This document shows positions 3,460-41,419 of a stretch of 64,000 bases of DNA, in pieces (within the stretch, counting starts at the first letter, position 1; every line of letters starts with the position of its first letter). The DNA comes from Patescibacteria group bacterium (lineage in GTDB: Bacteria; Patescibacteriota; Minisyncoccia; GCA-002772825), in NCBI GenBank assembly GCA_024654625.1, contig JANLHB010000005.1, positions 7,191 to 71,190 of the forward strand, read 5' to 3'. Below the pieces are notes generated by a model. The model worked only from the letters and a program-made list of their open reading frames with translations. It had not been told where the DNA came from and did not search any database. The translations under genes were made by a program, and so were the position numbers.

Positions 3460-3489
3460 GATTTTTATTGGAATTATAATTTAATATAT

Positions 3490-4035
3490 TTGTTTATGGA
3501 GAAATCAAATTTTTTTGAAAAACGTATTGAAAGAATGCATAATGCCATAGAAATGGTTCCCACCAAAATTGAAGATATTGATCTTATTGCATCTTGGGAA
3601 TCAAAAGAACCAAATATAATATCTTGGACTAAAGAAAAACATGAATCTATAATAAATAATCCGCAATTCTTACACCTTCTAATTAGTAAGAAAGGTGATA
3701 ATATTGTTCCTGTTGGGTACTCTATTTTGGAAAAGGATTCGCCGGATGAATTGTCTCTAGAGTTTATACGTCTCGTTATATGTGATGAATACAAGAATAA
3801 GGGTTATGGAGTCCTAGCTTTTGAAAATATTTGGGAATTAGCTTTTGATAAATTAAAATATTCTAGAGTTTGGCATGATGTATTTATTGAAAATGAAAAG
3901 GCTATTAATCTTTACGAGAAACTTGGTTATAAAAAATTTAAAACTAGCATTGATTTAACATCCGGTAGAGAGTTGATTTTTTACGAAATGTCTAGCGATG
4001 ATTATTTTTCTAGAGAGAAAGATAATAATTCTTAA
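3490..4035 (+). CDS. GNAT-family N-acetyltransferase
   Basis: Acetyl-CoA motif A-like RLVICDEYKNKGYG and motif B-like NEKAINLYEKLGY. The length is 181 aa. Confidence 0.65.
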   Translation: MFMEKSNFFEKRIERMHNAIEMVPTKIEDIDLIASWESKEPNIISWTKEKHESIINNPQFLHLLISKKGDNIVPVGYSILEKDSPDELSLEFIRLVICDEYKNKGYGVLAFENIWELAFDKLKYSRVWHDVFIENEKAINLYEKLGYKKFKTSIDLTSGRELIFYEMSSDDYFSREKDNNS

Positions 4036-4156
4036 GATATATATTGTGCATAATATCAATATTACGTGGGCCACATTCAATAAGTAATTGCAACTATTAA
4101 TACATAGTGTTATATTTTAATTATTATTAACAGGGCAGAAAATTAAGTAAATTTTT

Positions 4157-6712
4157 ATGGAAAAGCCACCTGATATGCCTAATATCCCCAAAAACTTAAA
4201 CGAAGCGGAAAAAAAAGTTGAAGAAAAAGAAAGATATAATCCTTTTGAAAAAGAAAAATACTGGCAAGATTTCTGGGAAAAGGAAGGTATCTATAAATTT
4301 GATCCTGAGCAACCGGGCCCTCTTTATACTGTAGATACTCCGCCACCAACAATCTCCGGGTCATTGCACCTTGGGCATATTTTTTCTTATACTCAAGCGG
4401 AGGTAATCTCGCGGTTTAAAAGAATGCAAGGGAATAATGTTCGTTATTCTTTTGGTTTTGATAATAATGGTTTGCCAACAGAAAGGTTGGTGGAAAAGGA
4501 ACTTGGGATAAGAGGCGCTAATATGGATTTAGAAGATTTCACAAAAAGCTGCCTTGATATTACGAATAAATATAAACACCTTTATGAAGATCTATGGAAA
4601 TCAATAGGTCTTAGTGTAGACTGGCGACTAGAATATTCCAGTATTTCGCCGGAAGTTCAAAAGAAATCCCAGTCCACTTTTAAGGAGTTATATGAGAGAG
4701 GGGTTATTTATAAAAAAAATGCCCCGGCTCTTTATTGCACAGAGTGTCAGACTTCATTTGCTCAAGCTGAAAAAGAAGATAAAGAAAAAGAAGCTGTTTT
4801 TTATGATTTATCATTTAAGACTGAAGATGATCAGGAATTGATCGTCGCAACAACTCGCCCTGAATTACTGCCCGCATGCAGTGCTGTTTTTGTTAATCCG
4901 GACGATATTAGATTTAAAAACTTAATCGGTAAGAAAGTTATCACTCCCTTGGGAGATGGGGTTGAAATAATGGCTGATGAGAAAGTTGAAAAAGATAAAG
5001 GCTCCGGGGCGGTGATGTGCTGCACCTATGGTGATGAAACAGATATCTATTGGACAAAAAAATATAATTTGAATGAAAAAATCATATTAAACAGATATGG
5101 AAAATTTGAAGATGTAGATGAATTGCCTGACTTGAAAGGGAGGAGAGTAAATGAAGCTAGGAAAATTATCGTTGAAAAATTAAAGTCTGACGGGTTTATA
5201 AAAAAAGAAGAACAGATCAAGCATAATGTTGATGTTCATGAGAGATGCGGTACCCTGGTGGAATTTTTACCGACTACTCAGTGGTTTATGAAAGTACTCG
5301 ATATGAAAGAACGCCTCTTGGATGCGGGAACTCAAATAAAGTGGCATCCTTCATATATGAAGACAAGGTATGAAGATTGGATTAATGGTCTAAAGTGGGA
5401 TTGGTGTATTTCAAGAGAAAGATTTTACGGAATACCAATCCCTGTATTTAGCTGCGATAATTGTGAGAACGTTTTAATCCCAGAGGAAGATCAATTCCCG
5501 ATTGACCCCAAAAAAGAGAAAAATATTCATAATTGTACTGCTTGCGGTGAAGGTAAAATGCTCCCGGAGAAAAATGTCTTGGATACATGGTTTACCTCGT
5601 CTTTATCGCCAGACATAAATAATGACAATCCATTAAATGGCGGATTGAATGGCAAGTTATATCCAATGTCGGTGAGGCCTCAAGCTCACGATATAATTAG
5701 AACATGGGCTGTGTATTCTATCTTGATGGGCTTGTATAAGCATAATGAGATTCCGTGGAGAGATTTAATGATCTCCGGACATATTTTGGTGCAGGAGGGA
5801 GAAAAGATTAGTAAGAAGACCGGTGGAGGAAAATATAAGCCGGAAGAATTAATTGCGACACATTCAGCGGATGCTGTCAGGTATGCGATGTGTGGCGCTT
5901 CGTTAGGCAGAGATTCATATTTTGACGAAAAGGAAGTGAAGAAGGGTAAAAAATTAGTCACTAAAATCTATAATGCCGGCAAGCTGGTGCTTAGTAAACT
6001 GGAAGGATTTGATCCTAAAGTAGAAATAAAAGAAGATGAGCTGGAGGCAATTGACAGGTGGATATTAGACAGATCATTTGAGACGGCAAGTAAGATGTCT
6101 GAATCTTTTGAAAATTATGAATTCAGCCAAGCGCGCCAGATTTTTGAAGACTTTTTTTGGAAAGATTTTTGTGATAATTATTTGGAGATTGTAAAAAGGA
6201 GGCTGGCAATAAAGCCGGACGATAATAAAGAGAAAATGTCAGCGCAATTCACGTCTTACAATTGTTTTCTTAGTGTTATGAAGATGGCTTCTCCTTTTAT
6301 CCCTCATATAACAGAAGAAATGTTCCACGCTCAAACAGTAAAGAAAGAAGATAATGGAGTTGTAAAAGAATCTGTTAGCTCGGAAAGTGGTGGTGGTTAT
6401 TTTTCCAATAATGAAAATATTAAAAGTATACATAGTACTCAGTGGCCATCAACATCACTTGAGTATTCTAATCATGAAAATAATGAAAATGCCAATTTAG
6501 CCTTAGATGTTATCTCAAAAATAAGAAGATTTAAGACTGATAATAAAATAAAATTTGGTACACAAATTACTTTGTTAAAAATAAGATGTCGAGAAGAACA
6601 AAAAAATAAATTAAACGGTTTTTTAGATGATATTACTTCTTTAGCAAAGGCAAATAGTGTTGAAATCGAAATAACAAGTGACGAAGAACTGATTGTAGAG
6701 ATTAGAGTTTAA
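4157..6712 (+). CDS. class Ia aminoacyl-tRNA synthetase (Leu/Ile/Val family), divergent copy with KISKK in place of the canonical KMSKS
   Basis: HIGH region SGSLHLGHIFSY...RFKRMQGNNV...GFDNNGLPTE; WDWCISRERFYGIPIP; DTWFTSS; GEKISKKTGG. The length is 851 aa. It has its own TTGCAA-17-TATATT promoter at about 4098-4126. Confidence 0.6.
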   Translation: MEKPPDMPNIPKNLNEAEKKVEEKERYNPFEKEKYWQDFWEKEGIYKFDPEQPGPLYTVDTPPPTISGSLHLGHIFSYTQAEVISRFKRMQGNNVRYSFGFDNNGLPTERLVEKELGIRGANMDLEDFTKSCLDITNKYKHLYEDLWKSIGLSVDWRLEYSSISPEVQKKSQSTFKELYERGVIYKKNAPALYCTECQTSFAQAEKEDKEKEAVFYDLSFKTEDDQELIVATTRPELLPACSAVFVNPDDIRFKNLIGKKVITPLGDGVEIMADEKVEKDKGSGAVMCCTYGDETDIYWTKKYNLNEKIILNRYGKFEDVDELPDLKGRRVNEARKIIVEKLKSDGFIKKEEQIKHNVDVHERCGTLVEFLPTTQWFMKVLDMKERLLDAGTQIKWHPSYMKTRYEDWINGLKWDWCISRERFYGIPIPVFSCDNCENVLIPEEDQFPIDPKKEKNIHNCTACGEGKMLPEKNVLDTWFTSSLSPDINNDNPLNGGLNGKLYPMSVRPQAHDIIRTWAVYSILMGLYKHNEIPWRDLMISGHILVQEGEKISKKTGGGKYKPEELIATHSADAVRYAMCGASLGRDSYFDEKEVKKGKKLVTKIYNAGKLVLSKLEGFDPKVEIKEDELEAIDRWILDRSFETASKMSESFENYEFSQARQIFEDFFWKDFCDNYLEIVKRRLAIKPDDNKEKMSAQFTSYNCFLSVMKMASPFIPHITEEMFHAQTVKKEDNGVVKESVSSESGGGYFSNNENIKSIHSTQWPSTSLEYSNHENNENANLALDVISKIRRFKTDNKIKFGTQITLLKIRCREEQKNKLNGFLDDITSLAKANSVEIEITSDEELIVEIRV

Positions 6713-6722
6713 TTTATTTAGA

Positions 6723-6978
6723 CTGCCCTCGTGACTATTAAAGACTCCGGCGCTGGCATGAGCCAAGAGACGTTGGATAAAATCTTCGAGAAATTCAACC
6801 GAGCTAAAGATGCCTCCAAGTTCAACACCGAAGGCTCCGGCCTCGGCCTCTACGTGGCTAAAGAGTTCATCGCCAAGCACAACGGCAAGTTGTGGGCGGA
6901 GTCAGCGAGCGTCCCGCCGTGGCGGGATAAAAAGGGAAAGGTAGCACATTCTTCGTGGAGTTGCCGAGGGAGTAGGGG
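6723..6978 (+). pseudogene. histidine-kinase 3' fragment, copy 2 (HATPase_c tail, frameshifted by a ~25-bp insertion that contains the palindrome cccgccgtggcggg)
   Basis: Translation: VTIKDSGAGMSQETLDKIFEKFNRAKDASKFNTEGSGLGLYVAKEFIAKHNGKLWAESA, then the insertion, then ggtagcacattcttcgtggagttgccgaggg. A 38-bp stretch is identical to copy 1. The rest diverges mainly at synonymous sites. Confidence 0.75.
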
Positions 6979-6980
6979 GG

Positions 6981-7469
6981 ATGATAAATATGTTTTATTT
7001 TATAAAAATTATAAATATTTTAAGAAAAATATATTGGTTTATATTCAGGCCTACCACAATAGGGGTCAGGCTTCTAAATATATACAATAATGAAGTTTTA
7101 CTTGTAAAACATACTTATTCTAGTAGCTGGTATTTACCCGGAGGAGGTGCTAAAAATGGAATAGATATTATAGACTCGCTTAAGAGAGAAATTAAAGAAG
7201 AACTCAATATAGATCTTAACGAAGGTCAATTGAGTAGTGCCGATCTGTTTGGAGTTTATGATAATTTCCAGGAATATAAAAACGATTATATCTTTCTGTT
7301 TATCTTAGATAATTTAAAATTAAATTTAACTAAAGCAAAAAATATTGAAATAGAAGAGGCTGGATATTTCAATATTAATAATCTCCCTGGTAGCATATCT
7401 GCCGGTACAAAAAGAAGAATAAATGAGTTTTTATCAAGAAAAGATAAAGTAATAATAAGTAAGTGGTAG
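6981..7469 (+). CDS. NUDIX hydrolase
   Basis: Nudix box LPGGGAKNGIDIIDSLKREIKEELNI. The start follows the gaggg/gggggg stretch at the end of the fragment, which can act as a Shine-Dalgarno sequence. Confidence 0.6.
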   Translation: MINMFYFIKIINILRKIYWFIFRPTTIGVRLLNIYNNEVLLVKHTYSSSWYLPGGGAKNGIDIIDSLKREIKEELNIDLNEGQLSSADLFGVYDNFQEYKNDYIFLFILDNLKLNLTKAKNIEIEEAGYFNINNLPGSISAGTKRRINEFLSRKDKVIISKW

Positions 7470-8749
7470 AGAAAGAAAATAAAATAAAGGCATTAACTCA
7501 ATACAGAGGATTTACTGTTCTTAAGTCTCTGGAGGCAGCTAGTGAAAGAATAGAAATATTAAAAGATATATTGGGAATTAGTGATAATCTAGAATTATTG
7601 AATATTGCAAAAAACGATCCAGAAAAGATACTTTCAAATCTCGGTAATTTATACGACGCCATAGGACCTCGGTCTATGGGGATCAATCCGACCCCTGTAT
7701 GTAATAGACAGTGTACTTTCTGTTCTAGTAGGCAAAGAAATAAGATAAATATAGAAGATAATATTGAAATAACGGAGGATAAATTAAGGAAAGTTTTTGA
7801 AGATTTTATAAGCATGAAAGGGGGAGGGTGTGTGCTGGTTGGTGGAGGAGAGGCATTATTAGCCTGCAAAGGCAAACTTAATGAAGTTATTAATGATTAT
7901 GATTTATATTATGGATTCAATACAAATGGTGTGAATTTGGATAAATTTACGCATGAAAAATTATTAGAAAAAACAAAATGGGTATCACTCAGTTTAATTG
8001 GACACAATAAAGATACATATAATTCTACAGCTGGATTAGATTCTTCAAGTGGTCAGTTTGATGTATTAAATGATAATCTTAAAAAATATATAGAAATAGC
8101 TGATGATTTAAATAGGGAAGGTAAAAGTCATCCCTATATATCAGCAAAAATATTGATATGTAGAGAGAATTATTTATATTCCGGAGAAATATATAATTAT
8201 GCAAAATATTTAGGATTCAAAGATATTTCCCTGAGATGCGTAAACAATTTTGAAATAGAAGAAGAATATAGAAAGAGAAAAATTATTCCTCAAGATATAG
8301 AGCTAACTAAGAAGGAGAAAGAGCAGATAAAAAGTATATTAACCAAAGAAACCGATTTATCAGAAGAGATAATATTTAATATATTGGGTTTACGGGATAA
8401 AATTAAAAATGATACGGTGGTTATAAACCCTACGCTATGTTGGAATGTAGTATTAGGTTTAATAATAAATTTAGATACAAACGGAGAAGTTTTTCTATGT
8501 AACCCAAGGATAGGAATGGAAAGTTTTAGTATTGGAAACATTAATTCAATGAGTCTAAAAAGTCTTTGGAGTGGTTCTATCCATGTTGATGTTGTTAAAA
8601 AAACTTATAAAACATTTAATAAGGGCGCTTGTGACTTAAGTAAATGTCGACACTTTCGTGTAGATCAAGTTATAGAGCAGTTTTTAGAAGGAAAGATATC
8701 ATTAAAAGATAGAAGTTTCGGTGATAAGCAAATGAGTTTTTTCCCTTAG
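7463..8749 (+). CDS. radical SAM protein with a C-terminal SPASM/twitch-like Cys-rich domain and a ~75-aa N-terminal extension
   Basis: CNRQCTFC (CxxxCxxC). C-terminal motifs: NLDTNGEVFLCNP and GACDLSKCRHF. Confidence 0.6.
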   Translation: MVEKENKIKALTQYRGFTVLKSLEAASERIEILKDILGISDNLELLNIAKNDPEKILSNLGNLYDAIGPRSMGINPTPVCNRQCTFCSSRQRNKINIEDNIEITEDKLRKVFEDFISMKGGGCVLVGGGEALLACKGKLNEVINDYDLYYGFNTNGVNLDKFTHEKLLEKTKWVSLSLIGHNKDTYNSTAGLDSSSGQFDVLNDNLKKYIEIADDLNREGKSHPYISAKILICRENYLYSGEIYNYAKYLGFKDISLRCVNNFEIEEEYRKRKIIPQDIELTKKEKEQIKSILTKETDLSEEIIFNILGLRDKIKNDTVVINPTLCWNVVLGLIINLDTNGEVFLCNPRIGMESFSIGNINSMSLKSLWSGSIHVDVVKKTYKTFNKGACDLSKCRHFRVDQVIEQFLEGKISLKDRSFGDKQMSFFP

Positions 8750-8753
8750 AGTT

Positions 8754-8988
8754 TTTTGGAGAAATTCAACCGCGCAGACAACGCCTCCAAGTTCAATACT
8801 GCCGGTTCCGGCCTCGGCCTCTATGTGGCTAAAGCCCCAACACTATCGCTTATCGCGAAAGTGAGGGGTAAAAATTCATCGCCAAGCACAACGGCAAGTT
8901 GTGGGCGGAGTCTGCCGGCGAGGGCAAAGGTAGCACATTCTTCGTGGAGTTGCCGTTAATCTCGACTGGTGTTGAGAAGAAGGGGTAA
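8754..8988 (+). pseudogene. histidine-kinase 3' fragment, copy 3 (disrupted by two short insertions)
   Basis: EKFNRADNASKFNTAGSGLGLYVAK [~40-bp insertion] FIAKHNGKLWAESAGEGKGSTFFVELP [~24-bp insertion] aaggggtaa. Confidence 0.75.
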
Positions 8989-9001
8989 AATGAGGTATAA
9001 T
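8972..9001 (+). promoter_or_regulatory. sigma70-like promoter TTGAGA-18-TATAAT, 7 nt upstream of the ATG at 9009 (leaderless-type arrangement)
   Basis: ttgaga at 8972-8977, which lies inside the second insertion of copy 3. tataat at 8996-9001, followed by ctctata and the ATG. Confidence 0.4.
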
Positions 9002-9008
9002 CTCTATA

Positions 9009-9893
9009 ATGAAATTTGAATTTAGAATCTCAAAATGGGCGAATTTTTATTATTTTGTCCAGAATCTCTCAGAATGGCATTTTAGTAATCGTAAAGATTA
9101 TAATATTTTTTGGAGAGAAAAGCTCAAATCTTTCTCAAAAGATGAGGAATCTGTATTAGAAAAATTTAAAGAGATTAGATTTAAATACCCTAAGACAAAA
9201 AGTTGTTTTGAAAGGGCTTTTTTTCTGTCAGAAAGCCCTTTTGAAGAATTGAATAAATGTTTATCTGAAAGAGAATATTTAACAATGAAGGAAATTTTTA
9301 ATGTTTTAGAGGATAAGTTTGATGCTCTGTATAAAGAAGATGAAGTTCTTCTTAAAAAATGGAAAGATGCATTGAGTGAAGAATCTAATGATAAAAACCT
9401 TATAATAAAAATATTGTCTATATTAAAAATCTTATACAAAAGCAATATTGATACACAAGAAGTTTCTGTCACTCTTTTATTTTCTACTCCTGAGCACATA
9501 GGAGGTGGTGCCAATATAGACCGCAATATGATTAGTCTAGAAGTTTCCCGTTACCCGATAGAAAATATAAATCAAGCCATAGGTATTATTTGGCATGAAA
9601 TAATACATTTGATGTTTCAAGAACGGTATTTTTCATTATTATTGGATTATTTTAAGGAAGATGAGCAGGTAGCTGACCTTGTTAATGAGTTAACCGCTGG
9701 ATCATTATTTCCAAATGGAATTTTAGGTATACGAATATTAAAGAATAAACCATCTACTCAATTATTGCCACAAGTTACCAAAGGGCAAACTATTATGATT
9801 ATTAATTTGGCAAAGGAGTATGTTGAAAAAGGCAGTCAACTGGACAGGAATTTTATCAATAGGTTGATAGATATTATTAAGGAGAAGAATTAA
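9009..9893 (+). CDS. hypothetical protein with an HExxH motif; putative zinc metallopeptidase
   Basis: WHEIIHLMF. There is no other recognisable domain. A convergent terminator hairpin at 9905-9938 follows it. Confidence 0.35.
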   Translation: MKFEFRISKWANFYYFVQNLSEWHFSNRKDYNIFWREKLKSFSKDEESVLEKFKEIRFKYPKTKSCFERAFFLSESPFEELNKCLSEREYLTMKEIFNVLEDKFDALYKEDEVLLKKWKDALSEESNDKNLIIKILSILKILYKSNIDTQEVSVTLLFSTPEHIGGGANIDRNMISLEVSRYPIENINQAIGIIWHEIIHLMFQERYFSLLLDYFKEDEQVADLVNELTAGSLFPNGILGIRILKNKPSTQLLPQVTKGQTIMIINLAKEYVEKGSQLDRNFINRLIDIIKEKN

Positions 9894-9944
9894 AAAAATG
9901 TCCGTCTGAGAAAATAAATTCTCAAACGGACATTTTGGAGGGGG

Positions 9945-10127
9945 TTAACCGCTTATGTCTCCCCACCCTGGGTCGCCGCCGCCGAGGTCGTCCCAATTAC
10001 CCCATTGGTCATCCCAGCCCTTAACGTCTTGTGCTTCTTGCTCTCGACATTCGCGCGGTGTGGCGTTTATGTCGAGGAGACTCCTTGTCCTTTCAGAAGC
10101 TCCCTTGATTGCGTTTGAGCCTGTCAT
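9945..10127 (-). CDS. 60-aa Trp/Asp/Gly-rich small protein translationally coupled to the upstream radical SAM-SPASM gene; candidate RiPP precursor peptide
   Basis: MTGSNAIKGASERTRSLLDINATPRECREQEAQDVKGWDDQWGNWDDLGGGDPGWGDISG. On the minus strand a strong SD, gaaaggagataaaaATG, overlaps the last codons of the radical SAM gene. The region is a local GC-rich patch. Confidence 0.45.
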   Translation of the reverse strand: MTGSNAIKGASERTRSLLDINATPRECREQEAQDVKGWDDQWGNWDDLGGGDPGWGDISG

Positions 10128-10129
10128 TT

Positions 10130-11266
10130 TTATCTCCTTTCTATCCGCGGGGGCGGATGGTTTATTTTCCTCACCTTATCTTCAAGGTAAGTAAAAATTT
10201 CTTTTCTAGTCTCGCAGTAGTAGTATTTTCCTTTTACACCTCCTTTCCTATGCATTGTGCAACCGTTATGACAAGCTTTTTCCCATTTGCACATAATGCA
10301 ATCCTGATGCAGATCGTTCACACCTTTTGCATAATTCATTCTTTCTGATCCATTTAGTATATCTAAGAGCGAAGATCTCGAGATATCACCTAATAGGAAA
10401 TTAGGTTGACCTGATGACCTGTCGCATGGGTAAATTCTCCCATCGTATTCAAGACAGAAATATCCCGAGCATGAGCCGTTAAATGAACATCCAGAACTCT
10501 TTTTCCCGAAGATGACCGCGATAAAGTTTTCAATCTCGCGAAGAGCAAGATTAGGATCGTCTTTATCGAGCCAAAGATTGATCTGTTCTTTGAGAAATCT
10601 CGTCAGTTGCTTGTTTGTCAGACCATGGCTATTTGATTTTAAGCCATTTTGTTCCAGGTCAAGATATACGTTCGTGCCCCACTTCTTGATGCCAAGCTCA
10701 TCCGCAAAAAAATGAAAATTTTCTTTTGTGGATGAAAGACTGGAGGATGTAATAGTCTGAATAAATCCCGGTTTTATGCCGTGCTTACGGATGATCTCTA
10801 GCCCTCTCATTACTGAAGAAAATGTCCCTTTGTCGTTGTTGTTTTTTCTGAATCGGTCATGGCTTTCTTTGTTACCATCTAAGCTAATGCCCACTCGAAA
10901 CTGGTATTTTTTGAAGAGCTCAGCCCACTCGTCGTTGATAAGAGTAGCATTGGTCTGTATAAAGTTTTGAACTTTTTGACCGTTTCTGGTGTTAGACGAT
11001 TGAATACGGACGGCTTCTTCGAAGAAGGGGATACCTGCAAGCAATGGTTCTCCACCGTGCCAGATGAAAGAAAGATTTTCGTTAAAGAGAAGTATGTATT
11101 CGCTTAAAAACTTCTCTAACAGTTCAAAATCCATGATACTGTGAGTAGACTGATCTTTGTCGTTATAGAAGCAGTAGCCACAGCGAAGGTTGCAGTAATC
11201 TCCCGCTGGTTTTATGATTGGGACCATCGTTTTAAGTGGGGAAGTAAGTAACACCCGGTTTTTCAT
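10130..11266 (-). CDS. radical SAM enzyme with a SPASM domain (anSME / RiPP-maturase type)
   Basis: CNLRCGYC near the N-terminus. SPASM motifs: CSGYFCLEYDGRIYPCD and CIMCKWEKACHNGC. A strong SD, aaggaggataaaATG. Confidence 0.75.
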   Translation of the reverse strand: MKNRVLLTSPLKTMVPIIKPAGDYCNLRCGYCFYNDKDQSTHSIMDFELLEKFLSEYILLFNENLSFIWHGGEPLLAGIPFFEEAVRIQSSNTRNGQKVQNFIQTNATLINDEWAELFKKYQFRVGISLDGNKESHDRFRKNNNDKGTFSSVMRGLEIIRKHGIKPGFIQTITSSSLSSTKENFHFFADELGIKKWGTNVYLDLEQNGLKSNSHGLTNKQLTRFLKEQINLWLDKDDPNLALREIENFIAVIFGKKSSGCSFNGSCSGYFCLEYDGRIYPCDRSSGQPNFLLGDISRSSLLDILNGSERMNYAKGVNDLHQDCIMCKWEKACHNGCTMHRKGGVKGKYYYCETRKEIFTYLEDKVRKINHPPPRIERR

Positions 11267-11320
11267 TTTATCCTCCTTGCGTTGTATAGATAAAGGTTAT
11301 TTTTATTTTTTAAAGATCAT

Positions 11321-11350
11321 TTGACAAAGTACAGTTCTAATATGTATAAT
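11321..11350 (+). promoter_or_regulatory. sigma70-like promoter TTGACA-18-TATAAT that reads into HK-fragment copy 4 and the MntA/HepT pair
   Basis: ttgaca at 11321-11326 and tataat at 11345-11350. It lies in a divergent intergenic region shared with the minus-strand radical SAM gene. Confidence 0.5.
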
Positions 11351-11433
11351 GCATATATTATGATTGAAAGTCAACATCAACAAGTTGTAAGCGCCCTAGT
11401 TGTTTTTAATAAGAAATTGCTTCTTTTATAAAA

Positions 11434-11610
11434 GCAAAATCTTCGAGAAGTTCAACCGCACTAAAGACGCCTCCAAGTTCAACACCGAAGGCTCCGGCCT
11501 CGGCCTCTATGTGGCTAAAGAGTTCATCAATAAGCACAACGGCCGCCTCTGGGCGGAAAGCCCGGGGGAGGGCAAAGGGAGTACATTCTTCGTGGAATTG
11601 CCGAGGGGGG
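11434..11610 (+). pseudogene. histidine-kinase 3' fragment, copy 4
   Basis: IFEKFNRTKDASKFNTEGSGLGLYVAKEFINKHNGRLWAESPGEGKGSTFFVELPRG. Its end, ccgaggggggtggtagtATG, supplies an SD for the next gene. Confidence 0.75.
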
Positions 11611-11617
11611 TGGTAGT

Positions 11618-12088
11618 ATGGCGTTAGGAGGTATTTCCTGGTATAATGTTTCTATGAATTTATCCAGAGAGCAGAAAATTAAATTAGCTGATTTTGCCGA
11701 AGCAAATGGTATAAAGTTTATAGTTTTGTTCGGCTCGCAGTCTAGAAAAACTTCTAAAAAAGATAGTGATTTTGATATTGCTGTATTAACAACGCCGGAG
11801 AAGAGCATTTTTGAGAGTTTGGAAAATTATAATAATCTTTTGTTTGGCCTATCTGCTATCTTAGAAATACCGGATTATAAGTTTGATCTAACTGATCTGA
11901 ACAATGCTAATATATTGTTGAGATATGAGATTGTTTCGAGCGGGCAGTTATTGTTTGGAGATGAGATCGATTATCTTGAATTTAAATCTTTTGCGACTAG
12001 GGAGTATATTGACGCTAAGAGATTGTTTGATCTTGAAGATTTTTTAATCAAGAAAAAGCAACGATTACTTTCAGAAGTAGTTCTTTAA
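11618..12088 (+). CDS. nucleotidyltransferase, MntA-type antitoxin
   Basis: LFGSQSRKTSKKDSDFDIAVL (GS...D-x-D). It is paired with the downstream HEPN gene. Confidence 0.65.
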   Translation: MALGGISWYNVSMNLSREQKIKLADFAEANGIKFIVLFGSQSRKTSKKDSDFDIAVLTTPEKSIFESLENYNNLLFGLSAILEIPDYKFDLTDLNNANILLRYEIVSSGQLLFGDEIDYLEFKSFATREYIDAKRLFDLEDFLIKKKQRLLSEVVL

Positions 12089-12093
12089 TTACT

Positions 12094-12561
12094 ATGATAA
12101 AAGAAGATTTTGTAAAAAGGAAAATATCATTGATCCAAGATGAACTCAGTAATCTTGAGCGTCTTTCGCATTATTCTTTTGATGAGATAGCAAGCGACCC
12201 CATAAAGCAGGGAGCATTGGAACGCTTTCTTGAAAGGGTTATTAATAGAGCAATAGATATCAATAATCATATTATCGCAGAGCTTGCAGGTCTTGATACT
12301 GCTACGCCGAAGGATTACACAGATAGTTTCTTGGAGTTGGCGAAGTTGGGTATCTATACTAAAGAGTTTGCGGAAAGTATTTCTAAAAGTGCTGGAACGA
12401 GAAATGTGCTTGTGCATGAATATGATAAAATTGACCAGACTAGGATTTATAATTCAGTCGCGGATTGCTTGCGTGATTATCATAAATATTGCGGATACAT
12501 TTTAGAGTTTCTTGAAAAACAACCAAAGGAGAAATACAACCAAAGGAGAAATAATTTGTGA
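12094..12561 (+). CDS. HepT/DUF86 HEPN-domain toxin
   Basis: R-x4-HEY motif RNVLVHEYD. Confidence 0.65.
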   Translation: MIKEDFVKRKISLIQDELSNLERLSHYSFDEIASDPIKQGALERFLERVINRAIDINNHIIAELAGLDTATPKDYTDSFLELAKLGIYTKEFAESISKSAGTRNVLVHEYDKIDQTRIYNSVADCLRDYHKYCGYILEFLEKQPKEKYNQRRNNL

Positions 12562-12576
12562 GGAGCTTGCTGGTGT

Positions 12577-12668
12577 CACGCCGTGGCGGGATAAAAAGAG
12601 GAAGGCTCGCCCGGATGAACCCGTTCGGACGGGGTAGCACATTCTTCGTGGAGTTGCCGAGGGGGTAG
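12577..12668 (+). pseudogene. histidine-kinase 3' fragment, copy 5 (only the last ~35 nt of the CDS plus the same cgccgtggcgggataaaaag element as copy 2 and a second small hairpin)
   Basis: cacgccgtggcgggataaaaag...cccgttcggacgggg tagcacattcttcgtggagttgccgagggggtag. Confidence 0.7.
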
Positions 12669-12677
12669 GGGATAGTT

Positions 12678-13831: not shown

Positions 13832-13904
13832 GGTGTATTCTTATATGTATTAATATACTGGATAATATATCAAATAGAAGGTAAAGATGATAGTATGTAT
13901 AATG

Positions 13905-13938
13905 TGACCCATTCTTCGTGGAGTTGTCGTAGGGGAGA
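13905..13938 (+). repeat. histidine-kinase 3' fragment, copy 6 (shortest remnant: tgacccattcttcgtggagttgtcgtagggg)
   Basis: It matches the terminal ~30 nt of the other copies. It is preceded by tatgtataatg, the same -10 context that lies upstream of copy 4. Confidence 0.65.
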
Positions 13939-13977
13939 GAGTAGATTTGATAATAGTTTTTATGGTATAATGTTCTT

Positions 13978-14268
13978 ATGGAAAAAGACGTTATTATTAA
14001 AAAATTGGATAAAAGCCTGTCGGTTTTGAAAGAGAAATACAATGTGAGAAGCATTGGTGTTTTCGGTTCGTATGTAAGAAATGAGGCAAAGGCAGGGAGT
14101 GATTTGGATATTTTAGTCACATTTGAAAAGCCGATAGGATTGTTAAAATTTATAGAACTGGAAAATTATCTCTCAGAATTGACAGGAATAAAAGTTGATT
14201 TGGTATCTCAGAAAGCGCTTAAGCCCAGGATAGGAAAGCAGATATTGGAAGAAGTGGTGAATGTCTGA
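13978..14268 (+). CDS. nucleotidyltransferase, MntA-type antitoxin (second copy, a divergent paralog)
   Basis: VFGSYVRNEAKAGSDLDILV. Confidence 0.65.
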   Translation: MEKDVIIKKLDKSLSVLKEKYNVRSIGVFGSYVRNEAKAGSDLDILVTFEKPIGLLKFIELENYLSELTGIKVDLVSQKALKPRIGKQILEEVVNV

Positions 14269-14623
14269 TCTTATGAAAAGAGATTATCTGGATTATCTTC
14301 AAGATATTATTGACTCAATAAATGACATTGAGAGTTTTGTTGGTGGGATGAATTTTAATTCGTTTGAAAAAGATAAAAAAACTATGAATGCGGTTGTAAG
14401 GAGCTTAGAGATAATCGGCGAAGCTGTTAAGAAAATACCGGAAGATGTGAAGGATAAGTACTCAGATATTCCATGGAAGAATATGTCGGGCATGAGAGAT
14501 AAACTAATCCATGAATACTTTGGCATTGATGAAGAGATTGTTTGGAATGTTGCAATAGAAGAATTGCCTCCTCTTGGGTCATTGTTTAAAAAAATTTTAA
14601 CAGAATCGGGGACGGAGGAATAA
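14261..14623 (+). CDS. HepT/DUF86 HEPN toxin (second copy)
   Basis: RDKLIHEYFGID. Confidence 0.65.
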   Translation: MSDLMKRDYLDYLQDIIDSINDIESFVGGMNFNSFEKDKKTMNAVVRSLEIIGEAVKKIPEDVKDKYSDIPWKNMSGMRDKLIHEYFGIDEEIVWNVAIEELPPLGSLFKKILTESGTEE

Positions 14624-14627
14624 GGCC

Positions 14628-15377
14628 ATGCATATACTAAGGACAAGATTTAAAAAAGAGATAGTGGCTGAATTCTTACCTCCATCAAGGATGTTAAAAG
14701 AGAATAAAGTTATCATCTTTTGCCAGGGGATGCCTAGTGGATCTTCAAAGAAAGACCTTCTCGAATTCTTTAGTAAGAAGGGATACTGGGTATTTCACCC
14801 GCGTTATAGAGGTTCATGGGAGAGTGGAGGCGAATTCCTGAAGCTTTCGCCTCATCAAGATATCTTGGACATTATAGAGCAATTGCCAAAAGGGTTCCGT
14901 AGCGCGTGGGACGGTAAACTCTTTAAGGTGAATCCGGATAAAGTTTATCTTTTTGGTTCAAGTTTTGGCGGTCCGGCCGCTATTCTTGCTTCAGGGTATC
15001 CTTTAGTAGATAAGGTGGTGGTGTTTTCTCCCGTTATCGATTGGAGGTCTCCAAGTAAGGTGGAGCCTCTTGATCAACTGGGCAGGTTCGTCAAGACTGG
15101 TTTCGGAGAAGCTTATCGTTTTCCGATCAAAAATTGGAATAAATTAAAAAATGGCAAATTCTATAATCCTATTGCCGAGACAAAGGATATAGATGGGAAG
15201 AAAATATTTATCATCCACGCTAAAGACGACGAAGTGGTGTCATACATACCCTCAAAAAAATTCTCAGAAAAGACAGGCTGTAAGCTGGTTTTACTGAAAA
15301 AGGGAGGGCATTTATCAGCAAAAAATTTCATCAAAAAGAGTTTCTATAAAAAAATAAGGTGGTTTATTAAAGAGTAA
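14628..15377 (+). CDS. alpha/beta hydrolase (dienelactone hydrolase / S9 peptidase-like)
   Basis: Nucleophile elbow LFGSSFGG (G-x-S-x-G). Confidence 0.5.
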   Translation: MHILRTRFKKEIVAEFLPPSRMLKENKVIIFCQGMPSGSSKKDLLEFFSKKGYWVFHPRYRGSWESGGEFLKLSPHQDILDIIEQLPKGFRSAWDGKLFKVNPDKVYLFGSSFGGPAAILASGYPLVDKVVVFSPVIDWRSPSKVEPLDQLGRFVKTGFGEAYRFPIKNWNKLKNGKFYNPIAETKDIDGKKIFIIHAKDDEVVSYIPSKKFSEKTGCKLVLLKKGGHLSAKNFIKKSFYKKIRWFIKE

Positions 15378-15383
15378 TTATTA

Positions 15384-15671
15384 ATGACCAAAAAATTTCA
15401 GCGGAATATTGAGGACTTCGTGTGCGGGCATTGCGGGGCGAGAGTCAGGGGCAACGGCTACACTAACCATTGCCCCAAGTGCCTGTGGAGCAAGCATGTG
15501 GATGTGAACCCGGGCGACAGGGGAGCGGACTGCGGAGGGATGATGAAGCCCGTTTCTGCCGAGCAGAAGAGTGGAGAGTGGCGGATCCTCCATAAGTGTG
15601 AGAAATGCGGACATGAGAAGATAAACAGGCTATCAAAAGATGACGACTTTGATAAAGTGACGAAGATGTAA
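15384..15671 (+). CDS. RNHCP-domain zinc-ribbon protein
   Basis: CGHCG...TNHCPKC...CEKCGH. The gene is GC-rich compared with its flanks. Confidence 0.45.
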   Translation: MTKKFQRNIEDFVCGHCGARVRGNGYTNHCPKCLWSKHVDVNPGDRGADCGGMMKPVSAEQKSGEWRILHKCEKCGHEKINRLSKDDDFDKVTKM

Positions 15672-15711: not shown

Positions 15712-17514
15712 GTGACGGAAAATAAAAAACGAACAAAAAATAATAAAAAATTTTACGCGGGGTTTATAGTCACTTTGCGTTACTTGGCTGAGTATAAGAA
15801 TGATATAATCTTACTTTCTGTTCTCGGTGTAATCTCCGCGCTTGCCAACGGAGCAGTGCCTTACTTAGTGGGGCGTCTCTTTGATGCAATCATCTCTCCG
15901 GGGGTAATCTTTGTCGGCACCTCAATAGAGATGCCCTTCTGGCTCTTCTTTGTAATTATATGGGGAATAGCTCAGTTTATTGCTAATTTTGTCGACTGGA
16001 GGAGCGGTATAAGAAGCAATGAAATAAGTACCAACATGCATAGCGGTTATGTTATTAAGGGATTTAATCGTTTGCTGGAGTTACCGATGTCTTTCCATAA
16101 AGAACATAAGGTTGGTGAAGTTGGGGAGAAGATAAACAGAGCAGCTAATGCTTTTTTTGATATGACATATAGTGTGATCATTACTCTTGCTCCTCAGTTC
16201 TTGAGTATCTTTATCGCTTTTGCGATAGCGCTGTATCTAAATTATATCCTTGCTGGTGTGATGTTCTTCGGGGTCGTCGCCTATGTAGTAGTTATGCTAA
16301 ATGCAGCCCCGCCAATCGCTGTTCTCTCTAGGAAAATGAATAAAACTTATGGCAGGGTTTACGGTGATTCTTACGATGCCATATTTAATGCTCAGGCTAT
16401 CAAGCAGGCAACAGCTGAGAACTATGAACAAAGAAATATAACCAATAGATTTAAGAATCAAGCTGGTCGACTTTATATTAATATGATGCGCGGTTGGCAG
16501 GGGCTGACTTTCTACCAGAGAGTGATTGTCATGTTCACTCAACTCACAGTTTTTGTGTTATCGACCGCCTTTATTCAGAACGGGTCTATGACTATAGGAG
16601 AGCTCGTGATGTTTAATGGATACGCCATGATGTTTTTCGGGCCTTTTGTGGTGTTGGGAAATAATTGGCAAGTGGTGCAGAATGGATTGACTGCTATTGA
16701 ACAGGCTGAAAAAATATTATCCACTCCTGCTGAAAATTATGAACCTGAAAATGCGGTGATACTTGATGACATAAAAGGCGAGGTTGAGTTTAAGGATGTC
16801 TATTTCTCCTACGATAAGAAAGGAAAGTATGTCTTGAATGATATAAATATCAAAGTGAACCCCGGGGAGGTGGTGGCGCTTGTCGGCGAGTCGGGTGTGG
16901 GGAAGAGTACCCTTATAGACCTTATCTCCGGATATCATTTTGCGGATAAAGGGAAAGTGTTGATAGACGGTCATAATGTGAAGCAGTTTAACTTGAAGTT
17001 CCTCCGCTCCAAGATAGGGGTGGTGCCTCAAGAGGTAGTCCTCTTCAACGAAGCGATAAAGGTGAATATTAAGTACGGCAGTTTCGGCGCTTCTCTTCGT
17101 GATGTGAAGAGGGCGGCGGAAGATGCTCACTGCACCAGCTTCATTGAAAAATTCCCCAAGAAGTGGGACCAGGTTGTGGGGGAGCGCGGAGTGAAGCTCT
17201 CCGTGGGGCAGAAGCAGAGGGTGGCTATTGCCCGAGCGATACTCCGTGACCCGAAGATTTTAATCCTTGATGAGCCGACCTCCGCGCTTGACGCCAAGTC
17301 GGAGAAGATCATCCAAGAGTCCCTAGAGAGACTGATGAAAGGGAAGACAACCTTCATTATCGCCCACAGGCTAAGCACGGTAAGAAAGGCGGATAAGATT
17401 ATCGTCTTTGAGAAAGGCCGGATTGTGGAAATGGGCAAACACGATGAGCTTATAAAAAAAGAAAATGGTGTGTATCGGAACCTTCATGAATTCCAAGTGG
17501 GGCTGAATGATTAA
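15712..17514 (+). CDS. ABC transporter, fused permease/ATPase (type I exporter, MsbA-like)
   Basis: Six predicted TM helices. Walker A GESGVGKST, signature LSVGQKQR and Walker B ILILDE. Confidence 0.8.
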   Translation: MTENKKRTKNNKKFYAGFIVTLRYLAEYKNDIILLSVLGVISALANGAVPYLVGRLFDAIISPGVIFVGTSIEMPFWLFFVIIWGIAQFIANFVDWRSGIRSNEISTNMHSGYVIKGFNRLLELPMSFHKEHKVGEVGEKINRAANAFFDMTYSVIITLAPQFLSIFIAFAIALYLNYILAGVMFFGVVAYVVVMLNAAPPIAVLSRKMNKTYGRVYGDSYDAIFNAQAIKQATAENYEQRNITNRFKNQAGRLYINMMRGWQGLTFYQRVIVMFTQLTVFVLSTAFIQNGSMTIGELVMFNGYAMMFFGPFVVLGNNWQVVQNGLTAIEQAEKILSTPAENYEPENAVILDDIKGEVEFKDVYFSYDKKGKYVLNDINIKVNPGEVVALVGESGVGKSTLIDLISGYHFADKGKVLIDGHNVKQFNLKFLRSKIGVVPQEVVLFNEAIKVNIKYGSFGASLRDVKRAAEDAHCTSFIEKFPKKWDQVVGERGVKLSVGQKQRVAIARAILRDPKILILDEPTSALDAKSEKIIQESLERLMKGKTTFIIAHRLSTVRKADKIIVFEKGRIVEMGKHDELIKKENGVYRNLHEFQVGLND

Positions 17515-41119: not shown

Positions 41120-41419
41120 ATGGCATTTAAAAAATTTGACAATACTCCAAAAAAAATGTTTCAAGGCAATTGGAAGTGCGGAAAGTGCGGAAAAGATATT
41201 AACGAGCTTCCGTTTAATCCTGACCCTTCAAGATTAAGCCAGCTTACATGCAGAGACTGTCATAGCACAGGAGGAAAAAAAGATTTTTCACCGCGAAAAA
41301 TGGTTGAAGGCAATTGGACTTGCAGCGGTTGCGGAGGAAATATCACCGCTCTTCCCTTTGAACCTAGAGAAGGCACCCCTGTCTCGTGCAGAGATTGCTG
41401 GTCTAAGAATAGAGGTTAA
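41120..41419 (+). CDS. tandem zinc-ribbon protein (internal duplication)
   Basis: NWKCGKCGKDINELPFNPD...CRDCH is repeated as NWTCSGCGGNITALPFEP...CRDCW. Confidence 0.35.
   Translation: MAFKKFDNTPKKMFQGNWKCGKCGKDINELPFNPDPSRLSQLTCRDCHSTGGKKDFSPRKMVEGNWTCSGCGGNITALPFEPREGTPVSCRDCWSKNRG

Follow-up and report, generated by a model that had tools for sequence, protein, structure and literature searches.

A 2.4-kb segment at positions 8996-11374 of a 64,000-nt stretch of DNA from a Patescibacteria group bacterium (assembly GCA_024654625.1, contig JANLHB010000005.1; the whole 64-kb stretch is called the window below) is probably a self-contained, horizontally mobile cassette of Patescibacteria dedicated to a peptide of the ribosomally made, post-translationally modified class (RiPP). 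Its three genes code for a radical S-adenosylmethionine (SAM) enzyme with a SPASM domain (rSAM), a 60-aa peptide and an HExxH protein, and the natural product that this trio makes is most likely a ring-crosslinked peptide of a new kind. We hold with high confidence that the rSAM and the 60-aa open reading frame (ORF) form a RiPP maturase-precursor pair, and the modification, as judged from the residue pattern of the peptides, is probably a cyclophane joining an aromatic ring to Cβ of Asp or Asn. The ORFs that an earlier sequence-only reading of this DNA had listed were all recovered in the ORF map (Table 1).

Results

The radical SAM gene and the 60-aa ORF are inherited together

The rSAM/SPASM gene and the 60-aa ORF were co-inherited and translationally coupled. 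As had been proposed, the TAA codon of the rSAM gene (10130-10132) was followed after 2 nt by the ATG of the peptide gene at 10127, and the AGGAG Shine-Dalgarno sequence, 6 nt upstream of this ATG, lay inside the end of the rSAM gene; an equivalent Shine-Dalgarno sequence with a short spacer was found in the orthologous loci L081, L083 and L085. The small ORF was located within a few nucleotides 3′ of the rSAM gene in six of six rSAM-anchored contexts, whose flanks were otherwise unrelated (ribosomal proteins, aminoacyl-tRNA synthetase (aaRS) genes, glycosyltransferases and toxin-antitoxin pairs), and it also followed the orthologous rSAM gene in about 30 further metagenome loci. A precursor ORF adjoined the rSAM gene in every orthologous-rSAM locus with a readable intergenic region, and the same picture emerged from 80 further loci retrieved by alignment of the HExxH protein and hence independent of both rSAM and peptide. 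The earlier reading had named loss of the small ORF beside orthologous rSAM genes as the finding that would overturn it; the ORF was kept there.

The peptide sequence was as quoted before, with 4 Trp, 6 Asp and 8 Gly among its C-terminal 24 residues. Against an 80%-identical orthologous locus, 14 codons differed synonymously and 5 non-synonymously, one indel of 2 codons kept the frame, and the core differed by synonymous changes only; the 60-aa ORF is a real protein-coding gene under purifying selection. An alignment of 30 precursors displayed a leader with the motif (N/R/G)-A-(I/L/V)-x-G-A-(L/F)-x-R, then a P-x-N region and finally an acidic core of variable length, so that the division into leader and core suggested from the window peptide was borne out by the conserved leader motif and acidic aromatic core of its relatives. 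The peptide gene is indeed a GC-rich patch (GC 0.56), which had been attributed to its amino-acid composition; the amino acids explain part of it, but the GC content at third codon positions is also high (0.54, where the HExxH gene has 0.24 and the rSAM gene 0.43). The remaining GC-rich patches of the neighbourhood consist of repeated 3′ fragments of a histidine-kinase gene, and the idea that the peptide patch is another such copy was rejected, as it had no repeat match.

Precursor cores are built from aromatic-x-(Asp/Asn) triplets

The window peptide contains four triplets, W38-D40, W42-N44, W45-D47 and W55-D57, and it is the sole ORF of the window with at least three aromatic-x-D/N motifs in its tail. 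In 26 non-redundant cores, 86 of 108 W/F/Y residues (80%) carried Asp or Asn at position +2; the share at +1 was 39%, and at +3 it fell to 3%. After shuffling, the share at +2 was 32 ± 4%, and the observed count was never attained in 10,000 trials, although the cores are related, so that the shuffle test overstates their independence and does not give a strict probability. The pattern was kept where Phe or Tyr replaced Trp, as in L114 (NWSDTYPFDNYDDFVDFPD; WSD..FDN.YDD.FVD.FPD), L116 (WSN..FEN.WLD) and L122 (YDD.YDD..WED.WDH). Repeated aromatic (W/F/Y)-x-(Asp/Asn) triplets are the only family-wide feature of the cores. Of the W-x-x-W acidic core proposed earlier, the acidic aromatic character therefore stood, and W-x-x-W as a conserved unit gave way to aromatic-x-(D/N). 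These repeats fit the published definition of triceptides, in which an aromatic residue is crosslinked to a Cβ within Ω1-X2-X3 (PMC11499958).

The aromatic-x-D rule also held in two distant systems, L160 and L127, which have another gene order and rSAM enzymes only 24-32% identical to that of the window. In L160 (2847-5195) the order is rSAM, HExxH and peptide, all co-directional, and in L127 (1818-4123) the precursor lies upstream of the rSAM gene; their cores are rich in His/Tyr/Trp-x-Asp, for example HDHVYDHYSDQPAYEDVHDHWSDSN. This suggests a broader superfamily of HExxH protein, rSAM and aromatic-x-Asp peptide. A degenerate module was observed in L148 (1834-1938 and 2339-2776), where a leaderless precursor remnant (…WQQWGDWDNGHADS) adjoins the HExxH gene, the rSAM gene is missing and an ABC exporter stands in its place, 68% identical to the exporter of the window over 146 aa at the C-terminus.

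The rSAM enzyme resembles anaerobic sulfatase-maturating enzymes

The CxxxCxxC motif of the rSAM (CNLRCGYC) spans residues 25-32, and its eight SPASM cysteines, C260, C266, C281, C323-x2-C326-x5-C332-x3-C336 and C351, were invariant across 25 homologues. The family comprises ~600 protein clusters at 50-60% identity, labelled almost entirely as Patescibacteria, Parcubacteria, Wolfebacteria or Pacebacteria; a contig scan with the broad patterns F[IV]WHGGEP and CNLRCxYCF retrieved only ~30%-identical genes resembling anaerobic sulfatase-maturating enzymes (anSME) from other phyla. Among NCBIfam models the best match was anSME TIGR03942 (280.3 bits; cut-off 349.45), followed by DynA NF041298 (230.8; 450), PRK13758 (213; 441), PRK13745 (193; 484), DarW (175; 650), GrrM/OscB (157; 310), AmcB (150; 425), PapB (140; 340), DarE (137; 650), YhhB (134; 445) and XyeB (121; 450), with FxsB at 96 bits. 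The matches to GrrM/OscB, AmcB, YhhB, XyeB and FxsB were full-length and all far under their cut-offs, and anSME scored higher. The alignments began at model positions 2-35 for anSME, DynA, DarW, GrrM/OscB, AmcB, YhhB and XyeB, and at positions 76-106 for DarE, SCIFF, QhpD and HxsB, maturases that bear a RiPP recognition element (RRE). Because the anSME, DynA and triceptide matches start at model positions 2-11 and those to RRE-bearing models do not, the rSAM has no N-terminal RRE extension.

Against solved structures, the family profile scored 253 bits with anSME 4K36, 97 with ChlB 9gm3 and 81 with CteB. The enzyme aligned full-length and colinearly with anSME 4K37 (187 bits), with conservation of the auxiliary-cluster cysteines and the C281-D282 pair; the ligands of the radical SAM cluster and both auxiliary [4Fe-4S] clusters were all kept, which together with the lack of an RRE corresponds to an anSME-like architecture. 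We take D282 to be the equivalent of the catalytic Asp277 of anSME. The enzymes that form three-residue cyclophanes (3-CyFEs) are thought to have a common ancestor and catalytic residues with anSME, and the rSAM has the RRE-less three-cluster architecture of both. The earlier reading would also have been overturned by firm clustering of this enzyme with anSME whose cognate sulfatase gene is nearby. The Pfam annotation of the six orthologous rSAM contexts contained no sulfatase domain (PF00884), and no sulfatase signature of the C/S-x-P/A-x-R type (PROSITE-style patterns) was present in the six-frame translation of the 64-kb window; the enzyme also scored under the anSME equivalog cut-off.

The HExxH protein belongs to a large unannotated family

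The convergent HExxH protein had been put forward as a possible leader peptidase. Its family keeps H196, E197, H200 and E227 invariant, together with an N-terminal signature, N19-L-S-x-W23-H24...R28...N32...W35. A word-indexed search returned 116 clusters, all hypothetical proteins and nearly all from Patescibacteria, and an exhaustive profile search of 1.84 billion representatives yielded 801 HExxH representatives at 50% identity, the best 150 of which were all members of the family. Sequence and profile searches of Pfam, NCBIfam and PDB gave nothing above threshold, and a scan of viral contigs for the family was negative. The HExxH protein founds a large unannotated family of Patescibacteria.

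The AlphaFold2 model (pLDDT 95, pTM 0.92) places a three-stranded β-sheet (151-178) before the HExxH helix (184-214) and a following helix (219-231) that carries the near-invariant N226 and the invariant E227, an Asn-Glu pair 27 residues downstream of HExxH. H196-E-x-x-H200 and E227 match the gluzincin arrangement of an HExxH helix with a Glu ligand on the next helix, and the modelled protein has a zincin-like fold with gluzincin topology. HExxH with a downstream Asn-Glu occurs in thermolysin and M1. Of 36 members, 22 gave weak SprT-like (zincin protease) matches, the best at E 5.9e-5, and a Foldseek search of PDB with the model was non-significant (best E 0.058, 3c37, a putative Zn peptidase), its top fold matches being all metallopeptidase or HExxH domains. 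None of the 36 members matched the NCBIfam HExxH-domain models at E <= 10, and the PDB chains 8s5f and 22ob of α-ketoglutarate (αKG)-HExxH enzymes showed no sequence match to the family at E <= 10.

Linkage was assessed in 43 loci, duplicates removed, in which 900 nt or more followed the HExxH gene. The neighbour was an orthologous rSAM gene in 25, a distant rSAM-SPASM gene in 8 and neither in 10, so that an rSAM-SPASM gene adjoined the HExxH gene in 33 of the 43 loci, including the deeply divergent arrangements L160 and L127 with aromatic-x-D precursors of their own. Viewed from the rSAM side, a convergent gene of ~295 aa was present in five of the six contexts. The HExxH gene is a frequent, not obligatory, third gene of the system: its earlier assignment to the cluster stood, and leader peptidase became one of two readings of its function, the other being an αKG-HExxH oxygenase.

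A 166-aa ORF was observed directly upstream of the HExxH gene in L105 (3511-4011), and also in L106 (2-376) and L158 (12-392). Its beginning in L105, GKIWAESEGD, is kinase-like, and the remainder is a C-terminal piece of SPASM with 36% identity to rSAM residues ~240-368; this type of ORF looks like a recombination scar that fused a kinase fragment to a truncated rSAM.

The trio is bracketed by histidine-kinase fragments

In the orthologous locus L081 (Ga0210057_1000821), positions 4891-7278 aligned to the trio block at 78% nucleotide identity; outside this block, L081 and the window shared histidine-kinase fragments only, and one neighbouring cassette differed. The window holds six direct copies, all on the + strand, of a histidine-kinase 3′ end that corresponds to the C-terminus of HATPase_c (283/600-838, 6725-6983, 8749-8972, 11382-11620, 12557-12676 and 13897-13946). 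The copies were 5′-truncated to differing lengths, some were degenerate, and all ended at the kinase stop codon and had in common a 20-nt core, CATTCTTCGTGGA(G/A)TTG(C/T)CG; the first copy, also truncated, begins at the stop codon of an arginyl-tRNA synthetase (ArgRS) gene. They set off a succession of cassettes, namely a pyridoxal-phosphate (PLP)-enzyme fusion with a GNAT acetyltransferase and a class-I aaRS, a NUDIX gene with a second rSAM gene (rSAM2), the trio, a nucleotidyltransferase (NTase) with HepT, and a NUDIX gene with a methyltransferase; another NTase and HepT pair (13978-14623) follows the last copy. Kinase fragments also bracketed or adjoined the module in L081, L138/139, L105, L125, L147 and L149, and in L133 the HExxH gene came directly after an intact 493-aa kinase gene. 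Neither an intact kinase gene nor a recombinase was seen in the window, and a scan of viral contigs for the 20-nt repeat core was negative. From this arrangement of repeats we infer that the trio is a mobile cassette that would have been inserted by site-specific recombination at the kinase 3′ end.

The kinase copies have the look of an integron-style array, or of integrations made one after another at a gene's 3′ end. Copies 2 and 5 (6893-6941 and 12557-12605) contain an extra insertion of ~25 nt with a short palindrome, CGCCGTGGCGGGATAAAAAG, which is not in the other copies, and copy 3 has a different 38-nt insertion. The cassette between copies 1 and 2 (841-6712, +) consists of the genes for an 872-aa protein that fuses two PLP-enzyme domains, PALP and Cys_Met_Meta_PP, the GNAT acetyltransferase (3490-4035) and an 851-aa class-I aaRS (4157-6712), and the cassette-like position of an aaRS beside amino-acid-modifying enzymes is unusual. 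The MNT/HepT toxin-antitoxin pairs (nucleotidyltransferase and HEPN RNase) at 11618-12561 and 13978-14623 (+) lie in cassettes that neighbour each other; in L081 two such pairs (3832-4624 and 7479-8271) flank the trio, and they are not nucleotide-homologous to those of the window.

Neighbouring genes and other features

The terminator said to lie between the convergent peptide and HExxH genes was found as an 18-bp hairpin at 9895-9936, with a predicted folding energy of -26.2 kcal/mol (z = -9.2) that none of 200 shuffles equalled. Rfam and tRNA scans gave no match near the trio locus. A reading of the trio as a defence system was dropped, as PADLOC gave generic rSAM-core similarity to viperins and nothing more.

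The assignment of both rSAM genes to one cluster did not hold, since an rSAM2 homologue was absent from all 86 related loci examined. The rSAM2 family contains 11 clusters, always preceded by a NUDIX gene and never near the trio; the NUDIX-rSAM2 pair was conserved in three other contexts (L170-L172), no precursor-like ORF was evident, and in the window a repeat boundary separates rSAM2 from the trio. NUDIX and rSAM2 are a separate two-gene module, not part of the trio system, and could act on a nucleotide or small molecule. The ABC exporter counted earlier as a nearby cluster member was present, but its link to the cluster was not upheld: it lies 4.4 kb off, with three unrelated cassettes between. 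A homologous exporter adjoined the rSAM gene in only a few lineages (L083/84, 42%; L104, 38%); the exporter is only loosely linked to the trio, and may have a part in export.

An S9/S33-type α/β-hydrolase gene (14628-15377, +), which was not conserved near the trio, and a gene for an RNHCP zinc-ribbon protein (15384-15671, +) with a local GC of 0.60 are located between the array of cassettes and the exporter. S9 proteases process some cyclophane RiPPs (PMC12957482). Farther away, a 70-nt sequence is directly repeated in tandem (41152-41221 and 41296-41365; the copies are 73% identical and 144 nt apart), and the repeat encodes a duplicated Cys-rich, zinc-ribbon-like "NW.C..CG" element.

Table 1 Coordinates of the trio cassette, its parts and nearby genes in the window
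Feature	Position	Strand	Remarks
Trio cassette (extent)	8996..11374	.	Single 2.4-kb homology block
Left cassette boundary, degenerate histidine-kinase 3′ end	8749..8972	+	Core CATTCTTCGTGGAGTTGCCG at 8936-8955
Right cassette boundary, histidine-kinase 3′-end copy	11382..11620	+	Core at 11584-11603
Radical SAM/SPASM maturase (rSAM), 378 aa	10130..11266	-	Pfam Radical_SAM and SPASM
Translational coupling site	10128..10138	-	AGGAG 10134-10138 in last rSAM codons; TAA 10130-10132; 2-nt spacer
Precursor peptide gene, 60 aa	9945..10127	-	Stop codon 9945-9947
Leader region, residues 1-37	10017..10127	-	N-A-I-K-G-A-S-E-R ... D-I-N
Core region, residues 38-60	9948..10016	-	WDDQWGNWDDLGGGDPGWGDISG; four aromatic-x-(D/N) motifs
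HExxH metalloenzyme (putative), 294 aa	9009..9893	+	HEIIH at residues 196-200
Bidirectional intrinsic terminator hairpin (predicted)	9895..9936	.	18-bp stem, A-run and T-run at sides
Promoter-like site of HExxH gene	8972..9001	+	TTGAGA-18-TATAAT, 11/12; consensus match only
Promoter-like site upstream of rSAM gene	11299..11327	-	TTGTCA-17-AAAAAT, 9/12; weak consensus match only
NUDIX hydrolase gene	6981..7469	+	
rSAM2 (rSAM-SPASM), 428 aa	7463..8749	+	Start overlapped by NUDIX gene
ABC exporter	15712..17514		Without peptidase domain (Pfam)

Discussion

In the mechanism that we propose, the rSAM would bind the leader of the precursor and cleave SAM reductively, and the resulting 5′-deoxyadenosyl radical would take a Cβ hydrogen from the Asp or Asn at position 3 of a triplet, the same position that anSME attacks on Cys or Ser. 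The carbon radical would then join the ring of residue 1 (indole or aryl) to form a three-residue cyclophane with a change of -2 Da per motif. The window peptide, with its triplets W38-D40, W42-N44, W45-D47 and W55-D57, could thus acquire up to four Trp-Cβ(Asp/Asn) cyclophanes, which amounts to a chemical prediction of -8 Da in total. The HExxH protein would process the modified peptide afterwards, most likely as a gluzincin-type leader peptidase or alternatively as an Fe/αKG β-hydroxylase.

Several observations weigh against this reading of the cassette. Neither an exporter nor an immunity gene lies within it, nor does a conserved cleavage motif; the HExxH gene was missing in one rSAM context (L168) and stood alone in 10 of the 43 loci; in some clades, Q or H stands at +2 of the first triplet (WQQ, WDH); and the motif statistic comes from related cores. 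The rSAM reached the cut-off of no curated NCBIfam family, and it is far nearer to a bona fide anSME (253 bits) than to ChlB (97 bits), the only solved triceptide synthase. That the enzyme is simply an ordinary anSME and the small ORF an unrelated or non-substrate small acidic protein nevertheless seems to us very improbable: its best profile and PDB matches are anSME, yet 280 bits lie under the TIGR03942 cut-off of 349, the six flanks have no sulfatase domain and the window no sulfatase signature, the small ORF keeps its place, is translationally coupled and has a leader-like motif, and the peptides have no C/S-x-P/A-x-R motif. We also find it improbable, if somewhat less so, that the peptide is the precursor of a redox cofactor or quinone (similar to PQQ, mycofactocin or CTQ), in which the SPASM enzyme would introduce the initial crosslink and the HExxH protein would cut the product out. 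The combination of peptide, SPASM enzyme and peptidase-like protein does recall PqqA/E/F and MftA/C/E, the cassette has no exporter or immunity gene, and the QhpD and mycofactocin maturase models match weakly; but each peptide has several motifs, and core length and tails vary strongly, as is usual for RiPP natural products and not for a single cofactor site; no cognate dehydrogenase was conserved beside the cassette in the six rSAM contexts, and the cassette is mobile and has a patchy distribution. More weight, though still that of an unlikely outcome, belongs to other chemistry by the same enzyme-peptide pair, either oxidation of Asp/Asn Cβ without a ring (dehydro, keto or aminomalonate-type) or an ether, C-N or Trp-Trp link. 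The nearest relative, anSME, is a Cβ oxidase, rSAM cyclophane synthases are reported to give oxidised shunt products such as aminomalonate (PMC12186529), and relatives make C-O and C-N links (PMC11499958), but the strict i/i+2 coupling between aromatic residue and Asp/Asn (80% vs 3% at +3) is predicted by a three-residue crosslink and not by simple oxidation, and the cores have no daropeptide ether motif Ω1-X2-Ω3, their Trp residues being spaced by 3, not 2 (PMC12912966).

The function of the HExxH protein divides more evenly. The chance that it is a leader peptidase is in our estimate about even, and a non-haem Fe/αKG oxygenase similar to ChlH, PflC, BpmH or PesO, acting by β-hydroxylation of Asp/Asn or by oxidative trimming, is a possibility that we weigh below it. 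HExxH proteins in cyclophane RiPP clusters have turned out to be Fe/αKG β-hydroxylases of Asp/His and not peptidases; these αKG-HExxH enzymes are zincin-like, were long mis-annotated as peptidases and are tied to triceptide rSAMs; they act on cyclophanes already formed, in which they hydroxylate Asp/His, and a hydrolytic activity has been seen in one of them as well (PMC12636437; PMC13060819). The Asp-rich precursor cores speak for an oxygenase, and so do the invariant, otherwise unexplained N-terminal H24 and R28 of the HExxH protein. Set against an oxygenase are the complete lack of matches to NCBIfam HExxH-domain models and PDB αKG-HExxH chains given above, the HExxH motif with Asn-Glu 27 residues on, which is the classical gluzincin peptidase signature, and the weak SprT-like matches in 22 of 36 members. 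Asp at X2 is also not universal (35 of 108). Many Patescibacteria, moreover, are anaerobic fermenters.

A bolder extension, which we consider unlikely, would make the trio the cargo of an undescribed integron-like system of Patescibacteria that uses the last ~50-250 nt of the kinase gene, including the invariant 20-nt core, as its recombination site, and would have the cargo encode a new class of multi-cyclophane Trp-(Asp/Asn) RiPP, whose maker would be a fresh recruit from the anSME lineage and whose finishing would fall to a new metalloenzyme family with a novel activity. If this were true, the cassette peptides could be effectors in the interaction between episymbiont and host.

To our knowledge, very few natural-product pathways have been recognised in Patescibacteria (the candidate phyla radiation, CPR), whose genomes are tiny, and our literature search found no paper linking cyclophane RiPPs to them. 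The trio offers a widespread, compact and experimentally tractable three-gene system, with ~600 clusters in the rSAM family. An enzyme standing between anSME and cyclophane synthases would be informative on the evolution of peptide crosslinking from formylglycine formation, and whether the HExxH family, with its 801 representatives, consists of hydrolases or of oxygenases matters for the current reassessment of "HExxH peptidases" from RiPP clusters. The setting of the cassette also gives a hint of the way in which such genes move between ultra-small episymbionts.

Comparison with known systems

With darobactin and the daropeptides (DarE) the cassette has in common a Trp-rich core and an rSAM/SPASM enzyme of the same broad clade. 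It differs from them in that its cores do not contain Ω1-X2-Ω3, the daropeptide ether-crosslink motif (PMC12912966), and have conserved Trp residues 3 apart, as W-x-(D/N)-W, and in that the DarE model, which has an N-terminal extension, was matched only from position 76 and with 137 bits against a cut-off of 650.

The αKG-HExxH β-hydroxylases (the ChlH domain of ChlB-H, BpmH, PflC/PosC and PesO; IPR026337) resemble the cassette HExxH protein in carrying HExxH on a zincin-like fold and in being linked genetically to rSAM cyclophane synthases and to cores that contain Asp. The cassette protein, in contrast, has no detectable sequence membership in this group and is a stand-alone protein of 294 aa with its own invariant N-terminal domain and a gluzincin-like downstream Glu.

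The closest relatives of the maturase in both sequence and solved structure are anSME (TIGR03942; PDB 4K36-4K39), which have the same length, the same Cys pattern for three [4Fe-4S] clusters and the same Cys-Asp pair, and like it have no RRE. Unlike them, the cassette enzyme scores under the equivalog cut-off and has no sulfatase partner, and its evident substrate is a dedicated, co-conserved peptide without a C/S-x-P-x-R motif.

DynA links Trp1 to the Cβ of Asn3 in dynobactin. The DynA model (NF041298) was the second-best match of the rSAM, at 231 bits over the full length, and a Trp-x-Asn/Asp triplet occurs in both systems; the core of dynobactin, WNSNVHSYRF, opens with W-N-S-N (PMC10125368). 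The score nevertheless falls short of the 450-bit cut-off, the cassette cores are long, acidic and multi-motif and do not contain the His-Tyr motif of the second ring, the host phylum is another one, and nothing in the cassette gives evidence of BamA-targeting activity.

The triceptide systems used for comparison were those of the 3-CyFEs XyeB/XncB, GrrM/OscB, YhhB, HaaB, HtkB, ChlB and MicB. The cassette resembles them in its RRE-less rSAM/SPASM maturase related to anSME, its adjacent precursor gene and its repeated Ω1-X2-X3 core triplets. It departs from them in an X3 that is almost exclusively Asp or Asn, in an enzyme nearer to anSME than any characterised 3-CyFE and under all family cut-offs, in its patescibacterial host, in a precursor located downstream of the maturase and translationally coupled to it, and in a partner that is a new stand-alone HExxH family and not a fused αKG-HExxH domain, an S9 protease or a YhhC-type hydroxylase. 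With these differences, the gene content and core pattern of the cassette point to a system that probably works like a cyclophane RiPP of the triceptide/dynobactin type, as a variant of that known type.

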